In this document: piece after piece, positions 7,186 through 41,544 of the stretch
Position numbering within the stretch: position 1 is the first letter of the stretch
Layout of the letters: every line of letters begins with the position of its first letter
Assembly (NCBI GenBank): GCA_045612145.1
Contig: JAZKYN010000113.1
Coordinates: forward strand, 1 to 44,234
Direction of reading: 5' to 3'
From: Bacilli bacterium
Lineage (GTDB): Bacteria; Bacillota_I; Bacilli_A; ML615J-28; CAG-313
Length of the DNA: 44,234 bases
The notes under the pieces: model-generated
What the model saw: only the letters and a program-made list of their open reading frames with translations
What the model was told of the DNA's origin: nothing
Database searches by the model: none
Translations under genes and position numbers: made by a program

Positions 7186-7653
7186 ATGAAATTTTACTCA
7201 GAAAAACTTAAAAAATTATTTGATACAGAAAAAGATTTAGTCGCAGCTGAAAAAGTTGTAGACGAAGAAAACGAAAAGAAAAAATTAGCTTCAGAACAAA
7301 AGAAAGAAGAAGCTAGTAAAGTAGAAGATGCTTTCAAAGCACGTAATGCAGCAAGACGTGAATACAACACTAAATTAGTTGAAGCACGTAAAATTTATAA
7401 CGATGCGATCATTGCTGCTAAGAGAACATTTAATGAAACTTTAACTTCAGCAACTGAAGCTAAGGATAAAGCTGAAGAAGCTTATAATGTCGCACTAAAA
7501 GAATTCACAGCAAAATACGAATCTTATCACATGACTTTAAAAGACGGTGACAATGTTGTTACTATTTCTAATGCAAGTGATAAGAATTTCGAAACAATGG
7601 GAAAAGAATTCAATAGTTTTTTAGACTCATTATTAAATATTTGGAAACTTTAA
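7186..7653 (+). CDS. Coiled-coil hypothetical protein
   Basis: AGGAG RBS; A/E/K-rich helical sequence. Confidence 0.8.
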   Translation: MKFYSEKLKKLFDTEKDLVAAEKVVDEENEKKKLASEQKKEEASKVEDAFKARNAARREYNTKLVEARKIYNDAIIAAKRTFNETLTSATEAKDKAEEAYNVALKEFTAKYESYHMTLKDGDNVVTISNASDKNFETMGKEFNSFLDSLLNIWKL

Positions 7654-7715
7654 TTTAATTTAAAAAAACTGAGGCAAATTGATTAAAATATCCAAACCAA
7701 TATCGTATAATATTA

Positions 7716-7819
7716 TAGAGGATGTAAAAACCTCTAATTCATAGTAGATAACTTCGGTTATCGTTTCCTCCTTTCAGCAGTGGTAATCTAATTCCTCCTA
7801 GACTATCACTGTTTTTTTT
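7716..7819 (+). ncRNA. Putative ~100-nt small RNA with two anti-Shine-Dalgarno motifs
   Basis: TATAAT at 7706; hairpins TAGAGG/CCTCTA and GATAAC-TTCG-GTTATC; TTCCTCCTTTC single-stranded; terminator stem with ATTCCTCC loop then a T-run; no ORF. Confidence 0.7.
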
Positions 7820-7898
7820 ATTTTCCAAAACACGTCGTTTTCATATTTACATTTTTTGATAAATAAGTTATAATTATAATGTAAGGAGACGTGATAGT

Positions 7899-8090
7899 AT
7901 GGCAAAGAAAGTTTATACAGTTCAACCAAAGAAAGATAAAAGTGTAATTAAGTTTACTTTAAAAACTGAATTACATAAACTTCCAAATAAATTACATTTG
8001 GATGCACAAATTAATTATCCTGCTAGAGTTCATGAAGATAAAAGATACAAGAAACCAAAGCATAAGGGTAAAATTTACAATGACGACTAA
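7899..8090 (+). CDS. Small basic protein with an ArfA/BrfA-like C-terminus
   Basis: 63 aa, Lys-rich, ends RVHEDKRYKKPKHKGK; own promoter and AGGAG RBS; family assignment is by eye only. Confidence 0.6.
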   Translation: MAKKVYTVQPKKDKSVIKFTLKTELHKLPNKLHLDAQINYPARVHEDKRYKKPKHKGKIYNDD

Positions 8091-8159
8091 ACACGTCAGT
8101 TTTCATTGTACTTTTTATCTTATTTAATTTATAATATAATTAATCAAGGGGGAATCTTT

Positions 8160-8549
8160 ATGAGAACATCGGAATTTAAGGGAATTAAAACTATTTTAAA
8201 TAAATATATTAGTCAATCTACCTCAATAGCAGAATTATGTGTAGTAAATGATGAGATTACTTTTGATCATCTTACTATTGGACAAGTTAAAGACTTAACA
8301 GAGAAAGCTAGAGATTTACAAAGTAAAACTGATACATTTTTAAAAGACGAACTTTATCATATTATAGGTATGGGTAATTTATCTGCGTCACAAACTGCAA
8401 CTTTAAATAAACTAGTAAAAGATATTACAGTGCATCGTTCTGTAGTTAAAGCTGTAGCCGGACTTCCAACATTACCAACTAAAATTAGTTCAGTTTCAAA
8501 ATATAAATCGAAAACATTTGGATTTGCTTTACATTCAACTAATGTTTAA
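8160..8549 (+). CDS. Hypothetical protein
   Basis: Promoter plus AGGGGG RBS favour ATG 8160. Confidence 0.75.
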   Translation: MRTSEFKGIKTILNKYISQSTSIAELCVVNDEITFDHLTIGQVKDLTEKARDLQSKTDTFLKDELYHIIGMGNLSASQTATLNKLVKDITVHRSVVKAVAGLPTLPTKISSVSKYKSKTFGFALHSTNV

Positions 8550-8624
8550 AACACGTCAATTTCAACTTTACAGTTTAAGCTATTTATGTTATAATAATAT
8601 TGTAAGTTAACGGAGGAAATAATT

Positions 8625-9011
8625 ATGACAGACAAACAAATTCAAGCAGTTAAAGACAGATTAAATGAAAAGTATTATGGAAACGAACCACATTTTCCAG
8701 ATAACTTAAAGCAACCTATTACTAAAGAAGATAAAACTTTATATAAAGAATTATCTTGTAGAGAAATGATTAATAGTAGTTTAATCTATGGAGATGATCC
8801 TTTTAGAAAAATTGATAAATGGTGGTATGGACATGGTTATTGTGAAAGATCTTATATGTCGGACTACGAAGATGAATTAGGTGAAGAAAGAGTTAGACAA
8901 TTATATGAAGAACAAAAATATGATATTAGCCAAGCAAGAATTCATCATAACGTTCATACAGATAGTGAAGGTTTAAGTTATAATAGTATTACTTGGGCAG
9001 ATGAAAGATAA
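8625..9011 (+). CDS. Hypothetical early protein
   Basis: Promoter, GGAGG RBS, ORF. Confidence 0.8.
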   Translation: MTDKQIQAVKDRLNEKYYGNEPHFPDNLKQPITKEDKTLYKELSCREMINSSLIYGDDPFRKIDKWWYGHGYCERSYMSDYEDELGEERVRQLYEEQKYDISQARIHHNVHTDSEGLSYNSITWADER

Positions 9012-9023
9012 GGGGAAATTTTT

Positions 9024-9371
9024 ATGAAAAATTATTTAGTTTTATGTAATTTTGCAAGTTATGCAGAAGATGATTATGAATTATTTACTAATCAATGGAC
9101 AGTAGGATCATTTGATACTTTAGAAGAATGTTATGAAGCATGTAGACAAGATGCTTTACAAGTTGCTAGAGATGCTTATGAAAATATGTATGACGAAGAC
9201 GAACAAGAAGAACTACAAAATAAGTTAGATGACTTTATGGAAGAATTAGTTAAAGTTCATAGAGAAGAAGTTGACTTAGTATATTTTGAAAGAATCTTAA
9301 TTAGTTATTTAGAATATACTGATTCTAACGGTCCACAACATTTAGATTATTCAATTATGAAATTAAAGTAA
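9024..9371 (+). CDS. Acidic hypothetical early protein
   Basis: AGGGG RBS, ORF. Confidence 0.8.
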   Translation: MKNYLVLCNFASYAEDDYELFTNQWTVGSFDTLEECYEACRQDALQVARDAYENMYDEDEQEELQNKLDDFMEELVKVHREEVDLVYFERILISYLEYTDSNGPQHLDYSIMKLK

Positions 9372-9451
9372 AGCACGTCAAAAGTAGCTTTACTTTTTTC
9401 TTTATTAATGTTATAATATATATGTAAATAAGTTAAGGAGGAAAAGAACTT

Positions 9452-9727
9452 ATGAAAACATTAATTAAAGGCAAAGTTAAACAAATCATCGTTAATGAAT
9501 ATTGGGATTCACATGGAAACTCAATTAGTTGGGGCAAGCAAACACATAAGTTTGATACCGAAAAAGAATTTAAAATTGTTTCAAAGAAAGAAGAAATTTT
9601 TGGTGTTGAGTTTGACGTCTGGAATATCTTCGTTGATGGTAAACAATTTGACGAAGAGTTTGAACTTACAGGTTATGCACTAAAGGATACAAAATTAATT
9701 CTTAACGGTTGTGTAGGTGCCGGTTAA
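9452..9727 (+). CDS. Hypothetical early protein
   Basis: Promoter, AGGAGG RBS, ORF. Confidence 0.8.
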   Translation: MKTLIKGKVKQIIVNEYWDSHGNSISWGKQTHKFDTEKEFKIVSKKEEIFGVEFDVWNIFVDGKQFDEEFELTGYALKDTKLILNGCVGAG

Positions 9728-9761
9728 AAACATAATATAATATAAGGAGGAAACAATTATT

Positions 9762-10286
9762 ATGAAAACTATTTTAAGAAAAGTACCAGATGAAGATATG
9801 TATTACAGATTTGAAGACGAAGTAGAGATTGATACAGAAAGAATTATTATTTATGGTAATCATCACTTCAGAGAATTCGGCGATTCAATTCTATTATCAA
9901 TTGTTAGTGGAGACTACTACGATGATGATACAGGATATGAATATGATGTATTAGAACAACTTCAAAAGTATACAGGAAAGAAGTGGAATCAAACTACTAT
10001 TAAAGGTTATAGTCAAGGTGATTGGCAAGATGTTTATTATGTAGAAGGTGAAGTATGTAAAGAATACATTGAAGAAATTGAAACTTTCTATATGGGTAAA
10101 ATTACTGAATTCCGTGCGACTGAAGATGAAGATCCAGATTCTTGCTATGTAGTATACGTACCAGATTATGTAGTATGGGAAGGTAAAGAAGCAATTTGTA
10201 GCTATCTTGATCTTCAACCTGAAACTACTACAATTCTAAAAGACGACGGATTTGAAAGAGTTTATAAGTACGTAGAAATTGAATAA
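9762..10286 (+). CDS. Acidic hypothetical early protein
   Basis: AGGAGG RBS; GYSQGDW motif. Confidence 0.8.
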   Translation: MKTILRKVPDEDMYYRFEDEVEIDTERIIIYGNHHFREFGDSILLSIVSGDYYDDDTGYEYDVLEQLQKYTGKKWNQTTIKGYSQGDWQDVYYVEGEVCKEYIEEIETFYMGKITEFRATEDEDPDSCYVVYVPDYVVWEGKEAICSYLDLQPETTTILKDDGFERVYKYVEIE

Positions 10287-10360
10287 ACACGTCAGCCTTA
10301 ATTTTACAACTTTCATATATTATGTTATAATAATTATAGAATAAACGGAGGAAATTAATT

Positions 10361-10924
10361 ATGGAACAAATTAGATTAGGAAGAAAAGTAAGAGTATCAG
10401 ATCCTTGTTATGGAACAGACGTATGGTGTGCAGGAACTCTTGATAATGTTAGAGAAGGACTTTATAATGTTGAAGTAGAAATGTCTGACAAAGGTATGTG
10501 GGGTGATAGAGTAAAATCATTAACTGTAGTTAATGCTAGTTATAATAAATTTTTAATCTTTAATAAAACAGCAGCTTTTGAAGTTGGTGTAGATAGCGGA
10601 CAAGCAGGAATTTATGATGAAGACTACTATAATCAATATCATACAGAAGACGGTTGTGATGATAATTGGTATGATGAAGTTTGTAAGTTAACTTTATCTA
10701 GTGAACAATTTGGTACTAAAGACGGAAAGTGTGTAGTTTCTAGTTCAGGTTATGGTGATGGTTGTTATATTTGTGAATTAGTAGTTGATGGGGGTGAAGT
10801 TGTTGCAATTCGTATTACTTTCATTGAAGAGGAAGAATATGATGAAGAAGACGAAGAAGACAATGATTGGTACTTATCTGAAGACGAATGGGAAGAAGAT
10901 GAGGAAGAATCTGACGAAGAATAA
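10361..10924 (+). CDS. DUF4241-like protein with an acidic tail
   Basis: VSDPCY, GVDSGQAG and SSGYGDGCY motifs; long D/E C-terminus. Confidence 0.7.
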   Translation: MEQIRLGRKVRVSDPCYGTDVWCAGTLDNVREGLYNVEVEMSDKGMWGDRVKSLTVVNASYNKFLIFNKTAAFEVGVDSGQAGIYDEDYYNQYHTEDGCDDNWYDEVCKLTLSSEQFGTKDGKCVVSSSGYGDGCYICELVVDGGEVVAIRITFIEEEEYDEEDEEDNDWYLSEDEWEEDEEESDEE

Positions 10925-11003
10925 GCACGTCAAAATAAACTTTACAAAAACAAATTAATTTGATATAATATAAATATAAGATACATACAGGAGGAAAAGA
11001 TTT

Positions 11004-11522
11004 ATGGGTTTAGATATGTATTTAGAAATTAGAAAGAACGAATATCGTTCAAAGTATCACAAAGATAAAGGAAGTAGACTTAAATTAGAATATCCAAAAG
11101 ATATTACTGAATTTATTCCTGAACCAGGAAAAGTTTGTACTATGTCAATTTCAAGAAAAACTAATTATCAAGTCGGTTATTGGAGAAAAGCAAATCACAT
11201 TCATAATTGGTTTATGGAAAATTGTGCGGACAGAGATGAATGTGGTGATCCAATCGACGACTGCAGACCAATTGAAATTACAGTAGACAAGTTAGAAGAA
11301 TTACTAGATGCTTGTAAGAAAGTATTAGCAGATCATTCTTTAGCAAGTTCATTACTTCCAACACAAAGTGGTTTCTTCTTTGGTTCAACAGACTATGATG
11401 AATATTATTTTGAAGATATTGAAAATACAATTGAAATCATCGAGCCAGTTATTAAGTTTGCAAAACATAAACTAGAAATTAAAGATTATGTTTGGGAAGT
11501 TTATTATCAAGCAAGTTGGTAG
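11004..11522 (+). CDS. Conserved phage protein (MGLDMYL / YWRKANHIHNWF / GFFFG type)
   Basis: Motifs typical of a widespread phage family of unknown function; promoter and RBS. Confidence 0.8.
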   Translation: MGLDMYLEIRKNEYRSKYHKDKGSRLKLEYPKDITEFIPEPGKVCTMSISRKTNYQVGYWRKANHIHNWFMENCADRDECGDPIDDCRPIEITVDKLEELLDACKKVLADHSLASSLLPTQSGFFFGSTDYDEYYFEDIENTIEIIEPVIKFAKHKLEIKDYVWEVYYQASW

Positions 11523-11609
11523 AAAAAATAAAAGTACGTCAGTTTGAGATGTACTTTTTTTATTTAAAATGTTATAATATATATGTAAGTTAATTAAGGG
11601 GGAATAAGT

Positions 11610-12260
11610 ATGAAAAGAATTAACATGACAAAATACGGTTTTATTAGAAATGAAAGGGAAGACTTCCACGACGATGGAAATAATTTTAAGGGTTATGCAA
11701 CAGGTCCTAATTCAAGATTAAGAATTAGTAAATTAGTTTCAGATGGAAGAGCTTACTTATCTGCAGATATGAATGGTTGTAAATTAGACTATACAGAATA
11801 TTCTAAACTTCCACATTATAAAGAGGCAACTTGGAACTATAATGGAATTGATATGGATTCACTAACTGATCAAGATTTAGTCAATTGGTATAATGCTTGT
11901 GTTGCTTATGAACAAGAATATATTGAAGCAGAGTCTAAAGTAGTATTTCCAACTATTGAAGAAATTAGAAATCAATGTTTTATACTTAATAAAATTCGTC
12001 AACAAGAAATTAAAGAAGTTGAAGAATTATTACAAAAAGCATCTTTAAATTTATTCTTAAAAGGAACATCTGATTATGAATTAAGAAGTATTAGAGACTA
12101 CTATAAAAATTTAACAAATCGTTTTTATAATCTTGATACATATCCACAATCAATTCAACATTCTAACTATGGAAGAAACTTTGTTAAAGATACTAATCCA
12201 GACATACAACCAAATTGGTATTATAAACAATTAGTTGAAATTTTAGAAAAATATTTATAA
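11610..12260 (+). CDS. Hypothetical early protein
   Basis: Promoter, AGGGGG RBS, ORF. Confidence 0.8.
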   Translation: MKRINMTKYGFIRNEREDFHDDGNNFKGYATGPNSRLRISKLVSDGRAYLSADMNGCKLDYTEYSKLPHYKEATWNYNGIDMDSLTDQDLVNWYNACVAYEQEYIEAESKVVFPTIEEIRNQCFILNKIRQQEIKEVEELLQKASLNLFLKGTSDYELRSIRDYYKNLTNRFYNLDTYPQSIQHSNYGRNFVKDTNPDIQPNWYYKQLVEILEKYL

Positions 12261-12359
12261 GAGATAAAGAAGTATAAAGACAAAAGTACGTCAATTTAAG
12301 ATGTACTTTTTCTTCTAAAAATGTTATAATATATATGTAAATAAATGGAGGAAGTAAAA

Positions 12360-12806
12360 ATGAAAAGAACATTTACATTTGGAAAAATTGATTATTATGG
12401 AAGAGGTCGTAAGCTTAATTTAGTTGAAGTAGACGTTGGTTTATCAGACAAAGGAGTCTTTACTGCATCAGCAACTATTTGGAATTCTAAAAAGACAGAT
12501 TGTGTTTGTGCTGGACAATGTTTAGATGAAGTTGCTAAATATGTTAAGTCAGATAAGTTTAAAAAGATTCACAGACTTTGGAAACAATATCACTTAAATG
12601 ATATGCATCCAGGAACTGAAAAACAAGAAGCAGCACTAATTGAAGTAGGATTAACCGGATTTGCATCAGACTACAGAAAGTGTTGTAATTATTTAGAATC
12701 GATCGGGTTATTAGTAGATGATGGATATAAGTTTGGAACTGCTTGGTTAAAAAGAGATATTCCAGTAGAAGATATTGCAGAAATTGAAAGACTATTAACT
12801 GAATAA
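12360..12806 (+). CDS. Hypothetical early phage protein
   Basis: GGAGG RBS favours ATG 12360; AGQCLD...WKQYHLNDMHPG. Confidence 0.8.
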   Translation: MKRTFTFGKIDYYGRGRKLNLVEVDVGLSDKGVFTASATIWNSKKTDCVCAGQCLDEVAKYVKSDKFKKIHRLWKQYHLNDMHPGTEKQEAALIEVGLTGFASDYRKCCNYLESIGLLVDDGYKFGTAWLKRDIPVEDIAEIERLLTE

Positions 12807-12903
12807 AAGATAAAAAAATGTAAACTTACGTCAAATTTGAGTTTACATTTTTTACCACTTATGATATAATTATAATGTAAGTTAAGTAAGGGAGGAAAAA
12901 CTT

Positions 12904-13653
12904 ATGAATAAAAATTACTTTTACAAAACAGGCTTAGATATTACAAATGCAAAACAAATGTTTGAATTCTTAAGAGGTCACTATATGTATGATACAATGA
13001 ATAGTTGGAACGGTCTTAAGTCAATTGCAAATAATGTTAAAATCTATAATTTAAATTTAGATGGAGATCATTGGAACGCACTTGCATATCTTCAAGATGA
13101 TGAATACTTTAATATTAATATGATGATTGAAGATTGGGAAGCAGATCATCCAGGTTATGAAGTAGGATTCAACGGTAGATCAGGTGGATATTTAGTATTA
13201 TGTAATAAACATAATAACAGAAATATTTTACCAGATGAAATTATTTACTTTGATAATTATGAAGACTTTAAATCTAACTTAAAAGCATGGTGGGGTGGAG
13301 TTAAATACTTTATGAATGACTTAAGATTCTATACTAAGTTAGTTCAAGACTTCGATAAGTTATGTGATGAGATCAGAAATTATGTTAATGAATTATCACT
13401 AAGAAGTTTTACAGATGACAAGATTGAAGTTTTATTAGATGACTTCGCTTATGACTATAAAGATGATTTAGGTTATGCTGGTTTAGATATTCCTGACTTA
13501 ATAGAAAGTAATACTAAAGAAATTCTTTTAAGTATTGATCCTGAAATGAGAAAGTGGAGATCACTTATGGACTGTTTCTTTAATACACTTAGAACAGACT
13601 ACTGGTCAATCATCGACGATGGGTCAACTATTATTAAGTTGGCTCTTCGTTAA
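12904..13653 (+). CDS. Hypothetical early protein
   Basis: Promoter, GGAGG RBS; GFNGRSGGYLVL motif; 7 Trp, all TGG. Confidence 0.8.
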   Translation: MNKNYFYKTGLDITNAKQMFEFLRGHYMYDTMNSWNGLKSIANNVKIYNLNLDGDHWNALAYLQDDEYFNINMMIEDWEADHPGYEVGFNGRSGGYLVLCNKHNNRNILPDEIIYFDNYEDFKSNLKAWWGGVKYFMNDLRFYTKLVQDFDKLCDEIRNYVNELSLRSFTDDKIEVLLDDFAYDYKDDLGYAGLDIPDLIESNTKEILLSIDPEMRKWRSLMDCFFNTLRTDYWSIIDDGSTIIKLALR

Positions 13654-13730
13654 AAAACACGTCAATTTCGACTTTACTTAATTATATAAAAATGTTATAA
13701 TTATAATGTAAATAAACGGAGGAACTATTT

Positions 13731-14054
13731 ATGAAAATTATTACAGTTGAAACAAAAGAACAATTACAAGAATTGTATGATGCTTGGGCAATGACTTGGG
13801 AAGGTCTTAGAGAACAAGACTATGAAATTGCTTTAAAAGAATGTGGTCAAGAAGACGCAGACGGTTATGTTATTAAAGGTTCAGTTATGAATAAGTTATG
13901 TAAATTAACTGGAGACAACGCTTATCCAGAAGATTTAAATATCTTTAGTATCGCTAAGTTTAGAGGTTTAGCAATTCATTATGGTGCTAGATGGATGACT
14001 GATATTATTGATAATAATGCTCGTCGTGAAAAAGGACATCATCCATTTAAATAG
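13731..14054 (+). CDS. Hypothetical early protein
   Basis: Promoter, GGAGG RBS, ORF. Confidence 0.8.
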   Translation: MKIITVETKEQLQELYDAWAMTWEGLREQDYEIALKECGQEDADGYVIKGSVMNKLCKLTGDNAYPEDLNIFSIAKFRGLAIHYGARWMTDIIDNNARREKGHHPFK

Positions 14055-14129
14055 CACGTCAGTATCTAATTTACAAATTTTACCAAATATTATATAATTA
14101 TATTGTAAGAAATCAAGGAGGATTTAATT

Positions 14130-14399
14130 ATGGAATATAAACATATTAATGATTGTTGGGCTGCAATTAGAGAAGCAAAAACAATTTATGAAGTACATAA
14201 GTTATTTGACCAATTTCCACGTTGGTCAGGTGATTGGGATGTTGTAATTGAAGATGATCATTATGTAGTCTATAATACTTACTTTGATTCACAATATGAT
14301 GAGTTTGATACAGACTTTGAAATATTAGATATTGAAGTAGAAGAAGACGAAGACGATCGTTCAGAACTTCCGTGGGACTACGGTAAACACTTTGAATAA
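14130..14399 (+). CDS. Acidic hypothetical early protein
   Basis: Promoter, AGGAGG RBS, ORF. Confidence 0.8.
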   Translation: MEYKHINDCWAAIREAKTIYEVHKLFDQFPRWSGDWDVVIEDDHYVVYNTYFDSQYDEFDTDFEILDIEVEEDEDDRSELPWDYGKHFE

Positions 14400-14411
14400 G
14401 GAGGCTTGAGT

Positions 14412-14780
14412 ATGTTAACTAAAGAAGAAAAACAAGATAAAGTTTTAGAGCAAATTATTAGAGAAACTGAAAAAGCCATCTTAGACAGTATTCCCGATTC
14501 TGAAATTGATGATAGAGATAAAATACCTAGTTATCAAGTATGGGTCTTTGGTTTAGATGCTGAAGATGAAATCATCACTGAAAACTTTATGTGTAGCTTT
14601 GACAAACCAGAACTTGCAATAGCTAAAGCAGAAGTATTTGCTGAAGCATTTAGAATGGGCATTGTTAATAAAGAAGATGAAAACATTACTAAGTATCAAA
14701 TCTTAGTAGAAACAGTTATTGACTTTGGTGATTATGAAGAAAACATTCAATCAATTTATGATGAAACAATTGAAATTTAA
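14412..14780 (+). CDS. Acidic hypothetical early protein
   Basis: AGGAGG RBS favours ATG 14412. Confidence 0.75.
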   Translation: MLTKEEKQDKVLEQIIRETEKAILDSIPDSEIDDRDKIPSYQVWVFGLDAEDEIITENFMCSFDKPELAIAKAEVFAEAFRMGIVNKEDENITKYQILVETVIDFGDYEENIQSIYDETIEI

Positions 14781-14860
14781 TTGCACGTCAGTTGAAGCTG
14801 TACTTAATAAATAAAATATTATATAATTAAAATGTAAAAATTAAACGGAGGAAAACATTT

Positions 14861-15175
14861 ATGAGAAAATCAAAATACTTAAACAAAACATTCGGAAATT
14901 GGACATGCACACACGTTGGTGTAGCAAGAAAGCAACCTGTATTTTTAGCAGGTACTAGAAAGAATTCTAAGCGTCCACACCATCAAACTTATTACTACAT
15001 TTTCGAAAGACCAACATCAGACGGTAAAGCGGACAAATTAGTTCGTTTAAGTGCTGGACAAGCTGCTATGGTATATCGTGGTTTATTATCTGTAGAAGAA
15101 GTAGCAGATACAAGACAAGAAAGAGGTGCTGGTGCATTTAAAGAAAAAGTTAGTTATCACTTTTATAATAACTAA
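14861..15175 (+). CDS. Basic hypothetical protein
   Basis: Promoter, GGAGG RBS; first gene of the sigma/initiator operon. Confidence 0.8.
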   Translation: MRKSKYLNKTFGNWTCTHVGVARKQPVFLAGTRKNSKRPHHQTYYYIFERPTSDGKADKLVRLSAGQAAMVYRGLLSVEEVADTRQERGAGAFKEKVSYHFYNN

Positions 15176-15198
15176 TTAAGTAGTAGGGGTGAGTAAGT

Positions 15199-16086
15199 AT
15201 GTTAAAGCAGACATTTAATACATTTAAATCTTGGGCTGAAACATTAAAATATGAAGATGGAGTTGATTACACTGAATCAGGCAGAGAAGTAATCCAACTT
15301 ATGATGGATAGATATTGTGAAGCTAAAGATAATAATGATTCAAAAAATAAAAATAAATACATCGCAGGAATTATGTTAAGATTCTGGCACGTAATTAATA
15401 AACTAAAAGAAAAAAGTCCGATTCAAGGTTTAGACTATTCAGACTACTTCTCTTGGTTATACGAAGCTATTGAATATGCTTGTAAGTATAGAGCATGGCA
15501 AAATCCTGAAAAGAAAACTAATGCACAACAATGTATTAATCAATGTATTGAAACAATTCGTTTACAAAAATATTATGATTTAAACTTACAAAAGAATAAA
15601 TCAAATGTTAATACATACTCTTTAGAAGCAGAACTTAGCGACGACGGTAGAACTACTTTATTAGATACTTTAGTTGATGAAGAAGCTTTAGAAAAAGAAC
15701 GTTTAGAATCAGGTGCAAGTGTAGCAATTGATTTAATTCAAACTTGTATTAATAAAAAGAAAATTGTAGAAGCAATTATTTTAGATACTATTGCATTTAA
15801 TGATGTACAAAAAGTTGAAAAAGAAGTTATTAAAGTTGTAGATGAAGAAGGCAAGACACACAGACACGTTAAACACACAAGTGAGTTTTGGCCATATAAG
15901 TGTGTACAAATTTTAAGTAATTTGCCTGAAGATTATGCTGACTACTTCTGCACACATTATAGAGTTGTAGTACAAGAACTTGAAGCAGCTTTAGGTGCAA
16001 TTAGAAAAGCAAACAATCAAAAATTATACAAGTATTTAAATTCTTGTTTAGAGAGTACTAAGCAATTAGCAGTTGATTTTGCTTAG
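15199..16086 (+). CDS. Putative phage RNA polymerase sigma-like factor
   Basis: Region-2-like DYFSWLYEAIEYACKY and region-3-like YSLEAELSDDGRTTLLDTLVD; 295 aa. Confidence 0.6.
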   Translation: MLKQTFNTFKSWAETLKYEDGVDYTESGREVIQLMMDRYCEAKDNNDSKNKNKYIAGIMLRFWHVINKLKEKSPIQGLDYSDYFSWLYEAIEYACKYRAWQNPEKKTNAQQCINQCIETIRLQKYYDLNLQKNKSNVNTYSLEAELSDDGRTTLLDTLVDEEALEKERLESGASVAIDLIQTCINKKKIVEAIILDTIAFNDVQKVEKEVIKVVDEEGKTHRHVKHTSEFWPYKCVQILSNLPEDYADYFCTHYRVVVQELEAALGAIRKANNQKLYKYLNSCLESTKQLAVDFA

Positions 16087-16119
16087 TCTTTCTTCTTATT
16101 TAAAAGAGGAGGTCTATTT

Positions 16120-16845
16120 ATGTTATTAGATATTATGAGTCCATATAGTTATCTGCAAGTTAATACGAAGATGATTAGTATTTTCGGTCTAAACGTGGCG
16201 GCTTATTGGGCGGAACTATTAAATATTTATCCACGAGTAATCAAAAAGAAAAAAGATGAAGTAATTCAAGCTAATGGTTACTTTACTATTGATAGGGAAT
16301 ACATCAGACAAAGAACATCTTTAGATCTTTCTGAGCAAACTAAGTGCGATAAAGTGTTAGTAAACATTGGTGTGCTTTCAATAGATGAAATTGATCCAAA
16401 CAAGATCTGTATTTCACTAAATGCAATGTTCGAAATACTATCAGAAGATGATACAGAAGCAATTGTAGCAATTCAAAAGAAAGCAAAAGCTAAGAAGTCT
16501 ACTACTAAAGCGACTAAACAAGATATGATTAAATTTAATCTAAAGAAAGCTATTAGAGACACAGACGAAGAAGTAAAGAATGCATATTATAATTGGATTG
16601 ATTCGATTATGGATGGTAGAAATTTCTTAACAAAGCAAGTTGTAGAAATTTTTGAATCTACAGTGCAAGCTTTCTCTACATCTAAAGTAGTTAGACTAAA
16701 ATTAATTGAAATCGCAACAGTTCACAATTATAGAGATGCTAACTGGGCAATTAATATTTACAATAAAGATTGTAAGAAGCCCGGAACATTCATTGGAGTT
16801 GAACAAAAACAAAACGTCGGAATTGATCCGAATTCAGTTTTCTAA
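16120..16845 (+). CDS. Putative replication initiator / winged-helix DNA-binding protein
   Basis: N-terminus VNTKMISIFGLNVAAYWAELL...GYFTIDREYIRQRTSL..SEQTKCDKVL resembles phage replisome-organiser wHTH domains. Confidence 0.55.
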   Translation: MLLDIMSPYSYLQVNTKMISIFGLNVAAYWAELLNIYPRVIKKKKDEVIQANGYFTIDREYIRQRTSLDLSEQTKCDKVLVNIGVLSIDEIDPNKICISLNAMFEILSEDDTEAIVAIQKKAKAKKSTTKATKQDMIKFNLKKAIRDTDEEVKNAYYNWIDSIMDGRNFLTKQVVEIFESTVQAFSTSKVVRLKLIEIATVHNYRDANWAINIYNKDCKKPGTFIGVEQKQNVGIDPNSVF

Positions 16846-16896
16846 AAATTGAAAACAAACTAATTTAAAACACACCACGGAGGATTTTAAGAGCTT

Positions 16897-17178
16897 ATGG
16901 GACACGTTAATACACAACTAGATAATTTATATACCTTTATTAAAAACGTCGCGTATAAAGGCGAATTACAAACCAAATTGAATGAGATTGAAATAGAGCT
17001 AGAAAGACTTGATCAACAAATCGAACAATTTGATAGACTTGGTTTGGAACCCTTTGTAGACTTTTTAACAGAAGATAGAAATAGACTTAATTTAGAACGA
17101 ATTCAGATCAATTTGAAATTAATTGAAGTTGAAAAAGAATTATTAGTATTTGAGTTTGAAGCGGCAACACGAGATTAA
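16897..17178 (+). CDS. Coiled-coil hypothetical protein
   Basis: GGAGG RBS; heptad Leu pattern. Confidence 0.75.
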   Translation: MGHVNTQLDNLYTFIKNVAYKGELQTKLNEIEIELERLDQQIEQFDRLGLEPFVDFLTEDRNRLNLERIQINLKLIEVEKELLVFEFEAATRD

Positions 17179-17294
17179 TTTTAAAATAAGTTAAAAATAA
17201 TTGGCTAAATTAAAAGTTCGAATAAACTGTACCTTATAATTAATCTTGACCGCGAAAGTCGTTAAACTAGACATTGATTATAAGGAGAATATAA

Positions 17295-17507
17295 ATGTAT
17301 AACTATTTTACACACAATTATTCTTTCGCTGTAACAGGATTAGGAAAAACAGTTAGCAAGACATTCCCTTCTAGATATGCTGCAAATGAGTATATGTATA
17401 AGATGTGTCACAGACATGGACTTAAAATTGAAGAAGTTTGGGATGATAAGCATGACAAAACTTATATCTGTAATAAAGGTGTAACATTCTATATCCACAG
17501 AATCTAG
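17295..17507 (+). CDS. Hypothetical protein
   Basis: AAGGAG RBS; downstream of a GCTAAATT motif. Confidence 0.75.
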   Translation: MYNYFTHNYSFAVTGLGKTVSKTFPSRYAANEYMYKMCHRHGLKIEEVWDDKHDKTYICNKGVTFYIHRI

Positions 17508-17614
17508 TGAAAAGAATCCCCTCGTGGAAAAGCTATTAACCACGGTCATCAAAACAAATAGCAAAACTTTAATGAAAATAGTTAAAATTTTATTTTGACT
17601 ATTGTATAATATAA

Positions 17615-17820
17615 TGTAAGTCGGAAACGATTTACAACCCACCTCCTTTCACGAAGATACTCCTCCGTATCTTCCACACCAGTATCCACCAAACTAACAC
17701 CCCCTTTCTTTCACCTCCTTTTGGATACGAAAACTTTATAATAAGATGGCAAGTTTGGTTAGCGTCATCAACTCCCTTTCTTTTTTTTGTTGGATATGCT
17801 GAATAAGCATATCTTTTTTT
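17615..17820 (+). ncRNA. Putative ~205-nt small RNA with five anti-Shine-Dalgarno motifs
   Basis: TATAAT at 17605; 5' hairpin TGTAAGTCG-GAAA-CGATTTACA; CACCTCCTTTC 17640, TCCTCC loop 17661, CACCCCCTTTCT 17698, TCACCTCCTTTT 17711, ACTCCCTTTCT 17771; terminator 17793-17820. Confidence 0.8.
17793..17820 (+). terminator. Intrinsic terminator
   Basis: GATATGCT-GAATA-AGCATATC followed by T7. Confidence 0.85.
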
Positions 17821-17861
17821 ATTATCGTATAATATAATAGACTACCTATGGGGGATTTTTT

Positions 17862-18308
17862 ATGTGAGATTTTAACTTCAATCAAGAAGATCAAATAAGT
17901 AAAGAACAACAAGAAGAACTGTTTACTACTTTAGTACAGAAAGCACTAAAAGGAGAACAGTCCGAATTCAGATTCATCGTTTGCTGACAAGACAGAAATG
18001 TTGTTAGAGAATATATTAGAGGAACTACAGCAACTGTTCAGATGTTTAATAATTTAATCACTAATCTTACAAAAGTATATGTAGATCAGATCGAGAAGAA
18101 CACACAGGATTTGGGGATTATGTTATCACTAAAACAATTCTATACTTGTAAGGATTATTATCAAAAAGAAAGAGAAATTGCCGAAGATATGTTAGACGAA
18201 TACAGATCATACATTTTCGGAGGGCATGTCTGAGATACTTTAGTGGGAAATACAAGAAAGGAAGAAGATATGGTAGATTATCGAACTCTACCTGTCAAGT
18301 GATTCTAA
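17862..18308 (+). CDS. Hypothetical protein, 148 aa (TGA=Trp at 17865, 17985, 18231, 18300)
   Basis: TATAAT and GGGGG RBS upstream; one frame fills the gap to TAA 1 nt before the next ATG. Confidence 0.75.
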
Positions 18309-18664: not shown

Positions 18665-20878
18665 ATGATAAACGTAATAAAAAGAGACGGAAAAGTAGTA
18701 GAATTTAATAGTGATAAAATTAAAACAGCTATTAGTAAATCTGCTGCTAGAGTCAACGAAATGTCAGAATCAGACATTGATCGCATTACAGAAATTGTAG
18801 TGAATAAATGTGAAAGAGCTCCTGGTGATCGCATCGGAGTTGAAGAAATTCAAGATTTAGTAGAAGACACTTTACTAAAATCAAAATTTAACAGAACCGC
18901 AAAATCTTATATCCTATTCAGAGATATGAGAACTCGTAACAGAGATAATAAATCAAAATTATTAAAAGACATTGCAAAGAAATTAAACGGAACTAATATC
19001 GTTAATCAAAATGCAAACTTAGATGAAGCTTCATTTGGTGGTAGAAAAGGTGAAGCTGCAAATGAATTAATGAAGTGGTTTGCACTAAATAACTGTATGT
19101 CTAAGAAATCTAGAGATAATCATCTGAACAATGAAATCTATATCCATGACTTAGATTCATATTCACTTGGAATGCACAACTGTATGAGTATTCCTTTTGA
19201 TCATCTATTAGAGAAAGGCTTCAATACTAGACAAACAGATATCAGACCGGCATCCTCAATTAATACAGCATTCCAATTAGTAGCAGTAATTTTCCAATTA
19301 CAAAGCTTACAACAATTTGGTGGTGTATCAGCAACTCACTTAGACTGGACTATGGTTCCTTATGTAAGAAAGAGTTTCTACAAACATATGGAAGATGGAA
19401 TGAAGTTTATGTGGAAAGGTGATATTAGACCAGTGTTCGAAAAAGACTGGCCGATCGATCATCCAATCTATAAATCATTTAGTGACTGTGGAATCTATGA
19501 CTATGCAATGGAAATGACAGCTAGAGAGTTGAATCAAGCTGTAGAAGGAATGTACCATAACTTAAATACATTACAATCTCGTTCAGGAAACCAATTACCT
19601 TTCTCTAGTATTAACTATGGAACTTGTACTTCAATTGAAGGAAGAATGGTAATTAAAGCTTTACTAGAAGGTTGTATTAAAGGTGTAGGTAAACATCACC
19701 GCACTTCTATTTTCCCTTGTGGCATCTTCCAATATATGAAAGGTGTTAATGACAGACCAGGAACTCCTAACTACGATATGTATCAATTAGCACTTAAGTC
19801 TACAGCACAAAGACTTTATCCAAACTACGCTAATGTAGACTGGTCAGGTAACGCAGGATATGATCGTAATGATCCTAAAACATATTTTAGTACAATGGGA
19901 TGTAGAACTGCTAATGGATTTGACATTAATCATGATGAAGGAGTTAATCCACAAACTAAAGATGGTAGAGGAAACATCTGTCCGGTAACAATCATCATGC
20001 CTACACTTGCTATGGAAGCAGGTAGAGATGTAGATTGCTTCATGGCTTTACTAGATACTAAAATTCACGAAGCGAAAGATATGTTGATCGAAAGATTCGA
20101 ATACATCTGCACTCAGGATGCAGGTGCTGCGAAGTTTATGTATGAAAATAATGTAATGTTAGGATACAAACCGGAAGAAGGAATTCGTTCAGCGCTTAAA
20201 CATGGAACATTGGCATTAGGTCAACTTGGATTAGCAGAGACATTAGAGCTTTTAGTAGGATGCAATCATACTAAACCAGAAGGTATGGAATTAGCACATC
20301 GAATCGAAGCGTTATTTAAACAAAGAGTTGCAGAATTCAAGAACAAGTATAAATTAAACTTTGGTGTTTACTATACTCCAGCTGAATCGTTATGTCATAC
20401 AGCTATGAAGAAGTTCAAAGATAAGTATGGCGAAATTGAGAGAGTTTCAGATCGCGAGTATTTCACAAACAGTATGCATGTACCTGTATGGGAAGAAGTC
20501 GATATCTTTACTAAAATTGATATTGAATCAGAATTAACTGGATATTCATCTGCAGGTTGTATTACTTATGTAGAATTAGATAGTTCTGCTAAGTCAAACT
20601 TAGATGCTTTAGAAACTATTGTTAATTATGCAATGGATAAAGATATTCCATACTTCGCATTAAACTTAAGAAATGATACTTGTTTAGATTGTGGTTACAC
20701 AGAAGAATTCAATGATCGTTGTTTAGAATGTGGTTCTACTAATATCCAACAATTACGTAGAGTTACAGGATATTTAACTGGAAATTACACTACTGCGTTC
20801 AACTACGGTAAACAAAAAGAAGTAGAAGACCGAATTCAACACACAAAGTTAACAGAAGGTTGGAAATCTAATGATTAA
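18665..20878 (+). CDS. nrdD: Anaerobic (class III) ribonucleoside-triphosphate reductase with N-terminal ATP cone
   Basis: VIKRDG ATP cone, IYIHDLD, HNC, MGCRT, TPAES, CLDC/CLEC zinc site, RRVTGYL glycyl-radical loop. Confidence 0.97.
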   Translation: MINVIKRDGKVVEFNSDKIKTAISKSAARVNEMSESDIDRITEIVVNKCERAPGDRIGVEEIQDLVEDTLLKSKFNRTAKSYILFRDMRTRNRDNKSKLLKDIAKKLNGTNIVNQNANLDEASFGGRKGEAANELMKWFALNNCMSKKSRDNHLNNEIYIHDLDSYSLGMHNCMSIPFDHLLEKGFNTRQTDIRPASSINTAFQLVAVIFQLQSLQQFGGVSATHLDWTMVPYVRKSFYKHMEDGMKFMWKGDIRPVFEKDWPIDHPIYKSFSDCGIYDYAMEMTARELNQAVEGMYHNLNTLQSRSGNQLPFSSINYGTCTSIEGRMVIKALLEGCIKGVGKHHRTSIFPCGIFQYMKGVNDRPGTPNYDMYQLALKSTAQRLYPNYANVDWSGNAGYDRNDPKTYFSTMGCRTANGFDINHDEGVNPQTKDGRGNICPVTIIMPTLAMEAGRDVDCFMALLDTKIHEAKDMLIERFEYICTQDAGAAKFMYENNVMLGYKPEEGIRSALKHGTLALGQLGLAETLELLVGCNHTKPEGMELAHRIEALFKQRVAEFKNKYKLNFGVYYTPAESLCHTAMKKFKDKYGEIERVSDREYFTNSMHVPVWEEVDIFTKIDIESELTGYSSAGCITYVELDSSAKSNLDALETIVNYAMDKDIPYFALNLRNDTCLDCGYTEEFNDRCLECGSTNIQQLRRVTGYLTGNYTTAFNYGKQKEVEDRIQHTKLTEGWKSND

Positions 20879-21473
20879 TTTTATTAAGAAGTCAGTTCTC
20901 GCCGGATTACTTATCAGTCTGGCGGGCTGAATTAAATTAAGCTGCAGCGATCCGATCGTTGGGTCAATATTATTTAGTGTTGGACTAATTAGTGTATTTA
21001 TGACCGAATCTAAATTATTTACAGGAGCTGTCGGTAATGTAAATTCAAAACGATCTATTTTCGAATTATTCCCGATGTTGGGACTAAATTTAGTAATATC
21101 AATCTTAATTGGATTATGTTATCAAGAAGTCTGCGGAACTTCAGATATATTTACTGAAAAAATGAAATTAGATCAACTTCAAATTTTACCAACTTTATTT
21201 AAAGGAGTCGGTTGTGGTGCACTAATATATTTGGCAGTAATGTTCTGAAAAACTGAAAAACAAATTCATCAGATCATTCCGGTAATATTATGTGTTGCAG
21301 GATTCATATTAGGTGGATTTGAACACAGTATTGCTTGTGCATTTTATTTAGGATCAAGCGTAACTACTGTAACAGAATTCTTTACTGGATTATTATATAT
21401 ACTAATAGTGGCAGTCGGGAATGCGATCGGCAGTTTAACTATTAGAGGTTTGTGGAAGGGGTTGATTAAATAA
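20871..21473 (+). CDS. Formate/nitrite transporter (FNT, FocA-like) channel, 200 aa (TGA=Trp at 20928 and 21246)
   Basis: SVLAGLLISLAG, GSILFSVGL, KLFTG, KGVGCGALIYLAV, FILGGFEHSIA, VAVGNAIG are the FNT signature segments; about six hydrophobic helices; overlaps the nrdD stop and the nrdG start. Confidence 0.88.
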
Positions 21474-21988
21474 TGAATTATTTAAGTCTAAATAAATCAG
21501 ACATCACAAACGGTCCTGGAGTTAGAGTATCTTTATTTGTGTCAGGTTGCACACACAGATGTAAAGGTTGTCATAATCCGGATGGGTGATCGTTCGACAA
21601 TGGTACTAAATTTAGTCAGTTTACTGTAGCAGAGATCCTCGATGCATTAGCGAAACCTCACATCAAAGGTTTAAGTCTGCTAGGAGGAGAGTGTTACGAT
21701 CAACCGGATTTATACTGATTAGTGAATTTAGTAAGATTGGCGAAAGAACATTATCCAACCAAAGACATTTGGGTGTGAACAGGGTATGAATTCGAACAAA
21801 TTAAAACTTCTCCACTAACTAGATATATTGATGTTGCAGTAACTGGAAGATTCATCTTAGAACAAAGAGACATCAGTGATAATAATAGATGAAGAGGATC
21901 TACGAATCAGAAGGTGATCGATGTTCAGTCCTCACTAAATAGTGGAAGAGCAGTCGCAGTAAGTGGCATCCCGAACAATGAGGTGTAA
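21473..21988 (+). CDS. nrdG: Anaerobic RNR activating radical-SAM protein, 171 aa (TGA=Trp at 21587, 21716, 21776, 21890)
   Basis: NGPGVRVSLFVSGCTHRCKGCHNPDG(W)SF, GLSLLGGE, KDIWV(W)TGY, (W)RGSTNQ; missed by the ORF track. Confidence 0.95.
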
Positions 21989-28078: not shown

Positions 28079-28150
28079 GTACGTCGACTATTGATGTACT
28101 TTTTTCTGTTTTTGTAGTATAATATATTTGTCAATCAAGGGGGAAAACTT

Positions 28151-28534
28151 ATGTCAAACAATATTTCTTATTCAACACATTCTTATAACATTCAAAACTT
28201 AACTCAAATTAAACTATCAACTTTAAACTCAACTTTTTCTAATCAAATTAATTACTTATTAAACTTCTACAAATCACACAAAATTAAACATTTAAACTTA
28301 TCAACTTCTTATCAAATTACTCTAACACTTTTAAACTCTTCTAATCTTGACTTATTAAAACTTATTTCATTATTAACTTATTTAAACTTTAATAATATTA
28401 CAAATCCAACTAACCTAACTTCATTAATTAATCAACTTCAATTTACACCAAACTCACAATTAATTCTAATTGATTCTATTTCTGAAATTGGAGAAATTAT
28501 TGAAACTAATTATTATTTTAAAACTTTAGATTAA
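28151..28534 (+). CDS. N/L/S/T/I-rich protein encoded by an almost G-free sequence
   Basis: Promoter, AGGGGG RBS, terminator; C-terminus aligns with the 23107 protein. Confidence 0.65.
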   Translation: MSNNISYSTHSYNIQNLTQIKLSTLNSTFSNQINYLLNFYKSHKIKHLNLSTSYQITLTLLNSSNLDLLKLISLLTYLNFNNITNPTNLTSLINQLQFTPNSQLILIDSISEIGEIIETNYYFKTLD

Positions 28535-40264: not shown

Positions 40265-41527
40265 ATGGACGATAAAATTATTAAAACATATACTGACTAT
40301 ACTGTCTTTATTGAAGACCCTGTTTTAGACTGCTATTATTGAATAGAAAATTTTTCAGAAGATGACGGACATACTAAAGAAGAGGCTCTTGACTATGCTA
40401 ATAAATTAGCTATGGCAATCGAGAACTATGACGCAGGTGTTTGAGTAGAAAAACGCTTAGTCACTGAATATGAAGACTTTGGACCTGACGGTGGTGAAGG
40501 AGATCCTAATCCACAAGTTATTTGGAAGTCTTATAATTTAGAAGATGTCGACGTTGGCGAAGGTTATTTTGATACTGACGGTTATCCTAATCTTCCTGAC
40601 GAGTTTATTAGTAATGATACAGAACAAAATAAAACTGAAGATGAAGAACCTGTTGAAGATGAAGTTATTTCTACTTGCACAGACTGACATGTATTTGTTA
40701 AAGATCTTAAGTCTGGTGACTACGACTTTGCAAAGGAATTTTCAGAAGACTGAAATAATACTAAAGAAGACGCAATTAAGTATGCTCAAAAAATAAATGA
40801 AACTACAGATTTTGCTACTTGAGTTGAACAAGTTATTGTTACTACTTATAGAGATTTCGGTCCAGATGGTGGAGAAGGTGATCCTAATCCTAAAGTTGTT
40901 TGGAAATCTCCAGAACTTAAAAATGTTAAAGATAATGATTTAGAACAAGGTGATTATGGAAATCTCTGAGACGAAAAATATTCTAAAGCTTTTACAGAAT
41001 CACTAGAAGAAAACTTAAGTAATGTTAAGTTTGAATGATTAAATAAACAAGCAGAAGTAATTTATCCTTTTGAAGAAACTGATGAAGAAGGATATCTTTT
41101 AGTTGATTACGGCGCAGGTGTATGCAATACTTTAGTTGCTAATGATCTTGTAAATATTAATATTGATGTATTAGTAGACTTTAGTGATGTAGATGTGGGC
41201 TATGATCCTGGTTATGAAAAGAGTGACTGGTGACAAACTATTACTATTGATACTTCAGGTTATATTGTAGAATTTAATTCTGTGAATTATAGAGTTACAT
41301 ATGAATCAGCAGAAACAGAAGACCACATTACTATTGATGAAGCAGCTACTATTCTAGGTATTACTAAAGATGAACTACAAGCTGAAGTAGATCGTAGATG
41401 TAAAGAATTATATAAAAACAGTGTAAGTAAAGTAGAAGATATTTATCTTGATGATTTAAAAGAAAGAGATGCAGAGGCTTATGTAGATGCTCATGCTGAC
41501 GACTGATATGATACTAATTGAGACTAA
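40265..41527 (+). CDS. Acidic repeat-domain protein, 420 aa (10 TGA=Trp), putative virion internal protein
   Basis: AAGGAG RBS; one frame with TGA at 40340, 40442, 40685, 40751, 40820, 40967, 41036, 41231, 41504, 41519; DFGPDGGEGDPNP.V.WKS occurs twice. Confidence 0.85.
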
Positions 41528-41544
41528 GAGTTAGGAGACATATT

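Follow-up and report, generated by a model that had tools for sequence, protein, structure and literature searches.

Organization of the locus

We analysed contig C113, the whole 44,234-base stretch hereafter called the window, which belongs to a 1.69-Mb genome bin of 165 contigs. The subject is an element of its + strand, Unit A, which an initial annotation had described as a phage small RNA (sRNA) displaying five copies of the anti-Shine-Dalgarno (anti-SD) tail of 16S rRNA. Its predicted transcript is ~205 nt long and non-coding, has predicted ends and is matched by the covariance model R1, introduced below, with E = 4e-55. Unit A appears to be a transcription unit of its own, having a promoter, no open reading frame (ORF) and an intrinsic terminator, and this organization is kept in 7 of 7 homologs.

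17582..17616, + strand: promoter of Unit A; a -35-like TTAAAA (17582-17587), a 17-nt spacer and the -10 TATAAT (17605-17610), with 10 of 12 consensus matches
17604-17616, + strand: promoter motif of Unit A; the -10 lies within GTATAATATAATG
17616..17820, + strand: predicted transcript of Unit A
17616..17635, + strand: H1, 5′ hairpin at the predicted start, GTAAGTCG-GAAA-CGATTTAC
17640..17650, + strand: site 1, CACCTCCTTTC, in the single-stranded linker between H1 and H2; P(unpaired) 0.98; 11 nt identical to the 16S 3′ tail
17653..17674, + strand: H2, hairpin GAAGATAC-[TCCTCC]-GTATCTTC; its loop is site 2, TCCTCC (17661-17666), with P(unpaired) 1.00
17682..17728, + strand: H3, a 7-bp stem GTATCCA/TGGATAC around a 33-nt G-free loop with sites 3 and 4
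17697-17709, + strand: site 3, ACACCCCCTTTCT, in the H3 loop; CACCCCCTTTCT at 17698-17709; a CCCCC-type variant
17711-17722, + strand: site 4, TCACCTCCTTTT, in the H3 loop
17745..17769, + strand: H4, hairpin with a conserved G/U-rich loop, GATGGC-AAGTTTGGTTAGC-GTCATC; the stem is GATGAC/GTCATC or AATGG/CCATT in relatives
17771..17781, + strand: site 5, ACTCCCTTTCT, a U-rich single strand ahead of the terminator; P(unpaired) 0.75; weakly conserved
17792..17820, + strand: intrinsic terminator; hairpin GGATATGCT-GAATA-AGCATATCT at 17792-17814, then a T-run
17827..17839, + strand: second promoter, GTATAATATAATA, 13 bases past the T-run; a 23-nt direct repeat of the Unit A promoter

The five motifs named by the initial annotation do sit at these positions, and the TATAAT promoter and the terminator-like hairpin are both on the + strand. 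No ORF of at least 60 aa is found on the + strand between a 70-aa ORF (17295-17507) and the next gene. Under genetic code 4, the sole open + strand frame in Unit A has 28 aa and is not preserved in the relatives. A short frame from 17746 has only 5–7 codons in two of them (L066 and L067) and is not preceded by a Shine-Dalgarno (SD) sequence, so Unit A is read as non-coding. The second promoter at 17827-17839 serves the gene at 17862-18308 (148 aa if TGA is a sense codon). The region 17400-18000 holds no tandem repeats, only dispersed 10–13 nt repeats of the C-rich motif.

Conservation and covariation

Relatives were reached through the 241-aa ORF at 16120-16845, since ten metagenome loci encode a relative of it at 71–100% identity. 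All six loci that reach the place carry Unit A (L064, L066, L067, L068, L069 and L071), and the other four stop short. Together with the window, seven homologs share a common order of promoter GTATAATATAATGT, H1, single-stranded ACCUCCUUU, H2, H3, H4, U-rich tail, terminator and a further promoter.

The promoter GTATAATATAATGT is kept in all seven, and within the linker of site 1, ACCUCCUUU is invariant and ACCTCCTTT is kept throughout. H2, in RNA letters GAAGAUAC-[UCCUCC]-GUAUCUUC, is invariant in stem and loop core in 7 of 7, none of its 8 pairs ever varying. The H3 loops span 26–47 nt with 0–2 G and hold at least one CCUCC, CCCCC or CUCCC in every homolog. The H4 loop is AAGUUUGGUUAG or a near variant, and each terminator is a strong hairpin with a T-run, the sequences being unrelated.

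Thus, the five-site display that had been proposed stands for the two invariant sites only. The sites in the H3 loop vary in sequence and number, and site 5 is not conserved as an anti-SD, being CTCCA in the closest relative L069, CTCTC in L071 and TCCCC in L064.

The covariance model R1 was built from the window and L069 with a structure that we supplied. It finds 7 of 7 homologs with E from 3e-60 to 2e-3. In its alignment 99.4% of 164 cells are paired, and 8 of 29 pairs are changed on both sides, namely 4 of 8 in H1 and 4 of 7 in H3. The covariation score is 0.194, compared with 0.084 in shuffles (0 of 500 reach 0.194) and at most 0.033 with slid partners. R1 left H3 and H4 of L066 and L068 and H4 of L067 unaligned; those stems were read by eye, and the H4 pair count refers to four sequences. 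Stems read independently of the model come in three versions for H1 and six for H3, all of them pairing.

G-U pairs occupy 8 cells in H1, H3 and H4 and would be A-C mismatches on the opposite strand, so the + strand is favoured. When the seven RNAs are folded singly, their motifs have P(unpaired) of 0.66–1.00, mostly 0.7–1.0, against ~0.5 overall, with the exception of one L067 motif at 0.15–0.41. A MAFFT alignment of the seven sequences analysed with RNAalifold gave back H2 and H4 alone, as the variable stems were misaligned.

Loops conserved amid covarying stems, as the initial annotation had envisaged, are indeed seen: the H1 and H3 stems covary across the relatives, and none of the 7 homologs departs from ACCUCCUUU or from the UCCUCC loop. 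These compensatory changes support the structure, and Unit A appears to be a conserved, structured non-coding family.

Beyond these loci, a blastn search with 17500-17900 against 50,697 phage records gave no match, and exact-pattern scans for a multi-site unit or the invariant 5′ module gave 0 in viral contigs and 0 in genome contigs. The 70-aa upstream ORF has no relative among viral contigs. The complement of the H4 loop has 11 matches in the window against 7.7 expected, and in the bin only scattered matches with 1 mismatch. Of 106 genomes of the same order, this bin alone has Unit A; its absence from the other 105 marks it as phage-owned and not of the host.

A loose pattern, CCTCC..CCTCC..CCTCCTTTCT, was rejected as unspecific and uninformative on the spread of the unit. 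It matched at least 113 stretches in viral contigs, and 80 loci (L084–L163) were read. Among the matches listed, 84 of 102 lie within ORFs, most of the other 18 resemble the reverse strand of short genes with SDs, and only L144 is a member of the family already known.

C-rich sites and the 16S rRNA tail

Unit A is the most C-skewed 120-nt stretch of the contig, with C-G of +32 against a mean of -7.7 (sd 7.1), and C makes up 51 of its 175 nt compared with 11.7% in the window. It is, as first described, a C-rich unit in a C-poor genome. CCTCC occurs six times on the + strand of the window: three times in Unit A (17642, 17662 and 17714), twice in Unit B, a second RNA presented below (7767 and 7794), and once within a gene. 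Three CCTCC inside 80 nt are reached in 1 of 1000 block shuffles. The only window copies of the 10-mer CACCTCCTTT are at 17640 and 17712, both in Unit A. The motifs of Unit A are predicted to be unpaired, P(unpaired) being 0.74–1.00 against 0.55 across the whole RNA.

The 16S 3′ end was not found in the bin. In two genomes of the same genus it is GGATCACCTCCTTTCTAAGG, and CACCTCCTTT matches this tail. The available text of a paper on clostridial sRNAs gives the 16S tail as 5′-GAUCACCUCCUUUCU-3′ (PMC3025663). Sites 1 and 4 are identical to 10–11 nt of the tail, whereas site 2 is the bare core UCCUCC and sites 3 and 5 are CCCCC and CUCCC variants. The five tail copies first claimed are therefore two such copies, a core and two variants.

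In the same-genus genomes (L072 1480-1510, - strand; L073 1508-1535, + strand), AAGGAGAAAGG stands directly 3′ of the 16S tail. It could fold back onto CCUCCUUUCU in the precursor rRNA.

A second RNA and look-alikes

A smaller second RNA of the same design, Unit B, lies upstream in the window.

7705..7819, + strand: Unit B
7705-7717, + strand: promoter of Unit B, of the same class as that of Unit A
7717-7735 and 7747-7762, + strand: two hairpins ahead of the first site
7764-7775, + strand: site 1 of Unit B, the single-stranded, anti-SD-like TTTCCTCCTTTC (RNA: UUUCCUCCUUUC)
7778-7811, + strand: terminator hairpin with TTCCTCC (7792-7798) in its loop, followed by a T-run at 7812-7819

Relatives of Unit B are present in G001, G002, G003 and G005 at the same distance (~7.4 kb) upstream of a 295-aa gene; their stems covary and both sites are kept. 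Further downstream, the same records carry an RNA of ~190 nt with a promoter, CUUUCUUUCACCUCC, more CCUCC sites, a terminator and then a promoter. It also holds (U/G)(A/C)CCUCCUUUCUAAA, equal to 12–13 nt of the 16S tail. This RNA comes in three distinct versions, L043, L044 and L046, with ACCUCCUUUCUAA in L043 and L046. Another locus, L010, has the non-coding CCUCCUUUCUGAA and ACCUCCCUUUCUGAAAAG and then a terminator.

Unit B and these look-alike RNAs share the design of Unit A, and the related phage records range up to 233 kb. The model R1 does not detect the RNAs of L043, L044, L046 and L010, which by their sequences could be either diverged homologs of Unit A or convergent. At 10230-11000 (+ strand) of L010, a more distant relative, ~750 nt without ORFs hold two or three terminator-ended segments with CCTCCTTTCTGAA, ACCTCCCTTTCTGAAAAG and TTTTCCTCCTTG.

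The promoter motif GTATAATATWATR has 13 copies in the window when one mismatch is allowed, 11 being on the + strand, against an expectation of 2.0. This excess identifies it as a promoter class of this element. The + strand copies start at 20, 7705, 17604, 17827, 18563, 30914, 31769, 33029, 35833, 38119 and 42793. The motif has no conserved -35 and precedes Unit A, Unit B and several genes including nrdD.

Predicted pairing with ribosome-binding sites

The ribosome-binding sites (RBSs) were compared between phage and bin by crude ORF calls of at least 100 codons, the start being picked by the best SD. The phage set comprises 56 + strand window genes with TGA read as sense, as detailed in the next section, and the bin set comprises 1460 genes from the other contigs of at least 5 kb under code 11. 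GGAGG is present in 36% of the phage RBSs and 18% of the bin's, and GGGGG in 10.7% and 0.8%, respectively. A match of at least 10 nt to the tail occurs in 0% of the phage and 1.2% of the bin RBSs, and one of at least 9 nt in 4% of the bin RBSs.

Every site of Units A and B forms a more stable mean duplex with the phage RBSs than with the bin RBSs. The means for phage and bin, in kcal/mol, are -9.7 and -8.1 at site 1, -9.1 and -6.4 at the H2 loop, and -10.9 and -8.2 at site 1 of Unit B. The best-site energy averages -12.1 for the phage and -9.7 for the bin, and reaches -14 kcal/mol or lower in 18 of 56 phage RBSs (32%) and 209 of 1460 bin RBSs (14%). Some bin RBSs pair at -19 to -23 kcal/mol.

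These energies bear on the earlier expectation that phage RBSs partly escape by their poorer match. The phage RBSs do lack the full 11-nt match, but so do nearly all bin RBSs, and each site pairs better on average with the phage RBSs; the expected escape is not borne out.

Within the phage, the 40 TGA-free genes pair at means of -10 to -12, compared with -7 to -8 for the 16 TGA-containing genes (p about 0.001–0.03). GGAGG is likewise found before 19 of the 40 TGA-free genes and 1 of the 16 TGA-containing ones. AAA comes directly after 24–54% of the GGAGG copies of the phage and its relatives, and after 9% of those in the bin. A signature of the phage clade is GGAGGAAA, the exact complement of UUUCCUCC in Unit B.

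The phage RBSs come in two styles, GGAGGAAA and AAGGGGGAA with TGA-free genes, and AAAGGAGA or a weak or no SD with TGA-containing genes.

Phage setting and recoding

The contig is part of a large gut phage element. Every long ORF of the window is on the + strand, the GC content is ~30% and G exceeds C on the + strand. The 295-aa ORF at 15199-16086 has relatives 45–49% identical on nine IMG/VR records of up to 233,329 bases, and NrdD adjoins this ORF (PHROG 487). Most other window ORFs, including the neighbours of Unit A, have no PHROG or Pfam family. No tRNA is found in the window.

TACGTCA(A) recurs near 28080, 28560, ~28965 and ~30045, tens of bases 5′ of the TATAAT-type promoter variant GTAGTATAATATATT, and is also present downstream of the unit in L071 and L064. 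It may be the binding site of a phage regulator or a second promoter class. A 127-aa ORF at 28151-28534 (+ strand) has a 120-nt stretch without G in its DNA and encodes a repeat-like protein rich in Leu, Asn, Ser and Thr. That stretch (28221-28340) was rejected as a further RNA, as it sits within a protein gene. Elsewhere in the bin, contig C52 encodes a Phi29-like major capsid protein at 5526-6902 (- strand; PF25622, E = 1e-62), so the bin holds at least one further phage or prophage contig.

The contig appears to read TGA as a sense codon. ORFs cover 0.64 of it under code 11 and 0.80 with TGA as sense, compared with 0.90 under code 11 for the other bin contigs. Three domains span in-frame TGA codons: SNF2 (1-285 of 290) with 5, an NrdG-like activase (2-137 of 137) with 4 and a formate/nitrite-transporter-like domain with 2. 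TGA sits where Trp is plausible, as in CHNPDG[W] of the NrdG-like activase, a position that we take to be a conserved Trp, and its sense is probably Trp. Genes containing TGA include those at 490-2199, 20871-21470, 21473-21985, 40265-41524 and 41518-42741, and the genes at 7186-17507 have none.

No suppressor tRNA is found in the window. The other bin contigs look standard-code, and the bin has RF2 (prfB) in one open frame. One idea had the CCCCC site occlude the SD-like element at the frameshift site of prfB. It was dropped, because the bin prfB matches its family over positions 2-353 in one stop-free frame and shows no evident frameshift site. Gut phages that recode stops in standard-code hosts are described in a preprint, and the terms 'Shine-Dalgarno', 'ribosome binding' and 'non-coding' are absent from its main text (10.1101/2021.08.26.457843).

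Interpretation and alternatives

We favour, with moderate confidence, the reading that Unit A is a trans-acting phage sRNA that masks SD sequences. Its four hairpins would hold G-poor, C/U-rich segments single-stranded, copying the anti-SD end of 16S rRNA. Exposed would be the invariant ACCUCCUUU linker, the invariant UCCUCC loop and one or more C-rich sites in the large loop. We infer that Unit A is transcribed and that each site pairs in the cell with the SD of an mRNA, competes with the 30S subunit and lowers translation initiation. Several mRNAs could be bound by one Unit A RNA.

As copies of the whole tail, with no gene-specific seed, the sites would act on any strong SD in place of a single regulon. 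The targets with the best predicted affinity would be the phage's own strong-SD, TGA-free genes, so our preferred version is that the phage re-allocates ribosomes in time, the strong-SD genes being damped as the RNA accumulates. Strong-SD host genes may possibly be damped as well, and Unit A does not look like a host-only shut-off. What endures of the initial annotation is a real, conserved, structured + strand non-coding unit that exposes anti-SD-like sites, without its five copies and its phage escape.

Several points weigh against SD masking. The R1 alignment is fitted to the model and so leans towards the structure, and the never-varying H2 provides no covariation evidence. The comparison set is the surrounding genome bin, which may not be the phage's host. 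The duplex energies leave aside mRNA structure, RNA amounts and ribosome competition, starts were chosen by SD strength, and several TGA-containing gene calls may be wrong. No coherent host target set emerged: the 10 best-pairing bin RBSs that were annotated precede genes of diverse, unrelated function, among them those for an ABC transporter, GreA, a ZIP transporter and an Rnf subunit, and one is that of the Phi29-like capsid protein on a further phage contig. To block translation globally, the RNA would have to be in large excess. Moreover, the tail identity of 10–13 nt exceeds the typical SD pairing of 5–8 nt and would also fit a protein decoy.

On the side of expression, the single raw-read RNA run, X11, held 0 reads. 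Contigs of the RNA libraries X1, X2 and X10, which show presence and not strand, ends or level, include 90–99% relatives both of the flanks and of Unit A as far as ~17666-17687, beyond which they diverge, in keeping with the variable H3 loop. The label 'bovine gut metagenome' attached to the RNA libraries derives from small-share rows and is no more than a hint.

The version of the initial annotation, a multivalent 16S-tail mimic that shuts off the host globally while phage mRNAs escape through a poorer RBS match, seems unlikely to us. It would draw on the full-tail copies, which match every SD variant, on the ~14% of bin RBSs (209 of 1460) with pairing energies of -14 kcal/mol or better, which for some reach -19 to -23, and on a promoter of the class used by many phage genes. 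However, the phage RBSs are the better predicted targets (32% against 14% at -14 or better, and a mean of -12.1 against -9.7), each single site favours the phage, the full match of 10–11 nt is rare in both sets, and UUUCCUCC of Unit B exactly complements the phage-typical GGAGGAAA. The serious rival, if to our mind an improbable one, has the RNA act as a decoy and thereby protect ribosomes or titrate a factor, much as other phage RNAs mimic those of the host. Its partner would be a protein with affinity for C/U-rich single strands or for the 16S 3′ tail. Candidates are a host nuclease or toxin cutting at or near the anti-SD, a 16S 3′-end processing or modifying enzyme, and a ribosomal or initiation factor. 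Tail identity of 10–13 nt (CACCUCCUUUC in Unit A, ACCUCCUUUCUAA in L043 and L046), beyond the common needs of SD pairing, would suit such a protein, as would several copies per RNA, several RNAs per phage and the conserved extra hairpin H4, which has no pairing partner found in the window or the bin. Yet no candidate protein was identified, and the neighbour genes match nothing in Pfam or PHROG. The drift of the variable sites between CCUCC, CCCCC and CUCCC is better suited to SD variants than to one protein site, and tandem repeats of the RNA-antitoxin kind are absent.

That the - strand is the product, as an SD/GGAGG-rich RNA soaking up 30S or as small peptides, or that Unit A is a cis-acting leader or spacer of its neighbours, is very unlikely. 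In all homologs the + strand bears the promoter, the post-terminator T-run and the downstream promoter, and the G-U pairs of H1, H3 and H4 fit that strand only. The - strand would carry strong SDs, folds well (z = -2.5) and has ORFs of 36 and 58 aa, but a 1-nt length difference falls within the 36-aa frame in L064; as for a leader, the terminator and the second promoter part Unit A from the next gene. Least credible of all is a chance C-rich spacer without function. The absence of an Rfam family would agree with it, whereas such a cluster arises in 1 of 1000 shuffles and the architecture, with compensatory stems and invariant sites, is kept in relatives whose flanking protein is only 71% identical. 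Masking of SD sequences remains the reading we prefer.

Relation to known systems

Rfam 15 (including RsaE, LhrC/rli, csRNA and 6C) has 0 matches in the whole window at the gathering score. At E up to 10 it gives only terminator-like matches, ncr1241 at 23/60 bits and STnc480 at 25/72 bits, and likewise for Unit B. Full-text literature searches, with supplementary lists outside their scope, found no phage RNA of this kind. With neither an Rfam match nor a precedent found, the tactic appears not yet described for phage. In its available text, a 2025 review of phage-derived sRNAs lacks the terms '16S', 'jumbo' and 'Gram-positive' and has as RBS examples only AsxR/FnrS and c4 (PMC12197685). No UCCC motifs were reported by a Listeria phage study that had sought them in its abundant non-coding RNAs (PMC12282133).

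Firmicute sRNAs such as LhrC, RoxS and IsrR commonly pair with SD regions through unpaired C-rich motifs, as does 6C. Unit A fits this C-rich-seed mode and differs by its several sites and whole-tail identity. LhrC presumably carries its sites in two loops, of a hairpin and of the terminator, and in a single-stranded stretch, and Unit B has exactly this layout. As the available text on LhrC of Listeria monocytogenes has it, several redundant C/U-rich sites pair with RBS regions and sibling RNAs exist per genome, but LhrC is chromosomal and stress-induced, with a 4-nt UCCC core and few specific targets (PMC4132741). In contrast, Unit A is phage-borne and ~205 nt long, with 4–5 sites, a tail match of 10–13 nt and no Rfam match even at E up to 10.

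RsaE/RoxS, IsrR and the actinobacterial 6C likewise bind G-rich SDs by unpaired C-rich loops with no chaperone needed, and differ as host-encoded metabolic regulators with CCCC motifs, so far as the available texts describe them (PMC5419742, PMC10433868, PMC9410917, PMC6486639). Unit A has no sequence or covariance-model similarity to them, and its sites reach into the UUUCU and CA flanks of the tail. The streptococcal csRNAs have an unpaired region complementary to the SD and the start codon and act as several additive copies with one site each in the host CiaRH regulon. Compared with these, Unit A is phage-borne and has several sites per RNA, and no anti-start-codon element was noticed in it.

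Among phage RNAs, the c4 antisense RNA of P1/P7 is alike in that its loops pair around an RBS and block translation, and is specific for the ant mRNA via unique complementarity, by the accessible text of the review (PMC12197685). Unit A, on the other hand, carries a generic anti-SD in several copies. Phages also encode RNA mimics of host RNAs, such as pseudo-ToxI antitoxin repeats and repeat-like anti-CRISPR RNAs, which are protein decoys with known partners and a repeat organisation. With Unit A, too, a non-coding transcript reproduces a short motif of a host RNA, but Unit A has no tandem repeats. It also lacks the tandem repeats beside a toxin gene that define type III toxin-antitoxin RNAs, its neighbours having no family match.

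Implications

Phages seize host transcription and, through proteins, host ribosomes. The Firmicute sRNAs with C-rich seeds mask single RBSs, and a multi-copy generic anti-SD RNA of a phage would join this mode with phage takeover. Unit A would then act on translation initiation as a class and not on one regulon. For the annotation of the gut virome, two new RNA families are gained.

The uncultured phage relatives of up to 233 kb also reassign a stop, and Unit A could bear on how standard-code and recoded genes are ordered. A bolder proposal, which we put forward as a speculation with little chance of holding in full, is that large TGA-recoded gut Bacillota phages carry a toolkit of sRNAs, at least two families per genome. 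These free copies of the anti-SD tail would, as they accumulate, mask the strong RBSs of standard-code phage genes and of the host, and shift ribosomes to the weak-SD, TGA-containing genes when TGA has become decodable. If true, RNA would switch translation initiation across the genome, and the switch would be tied to a change of the genetic code.

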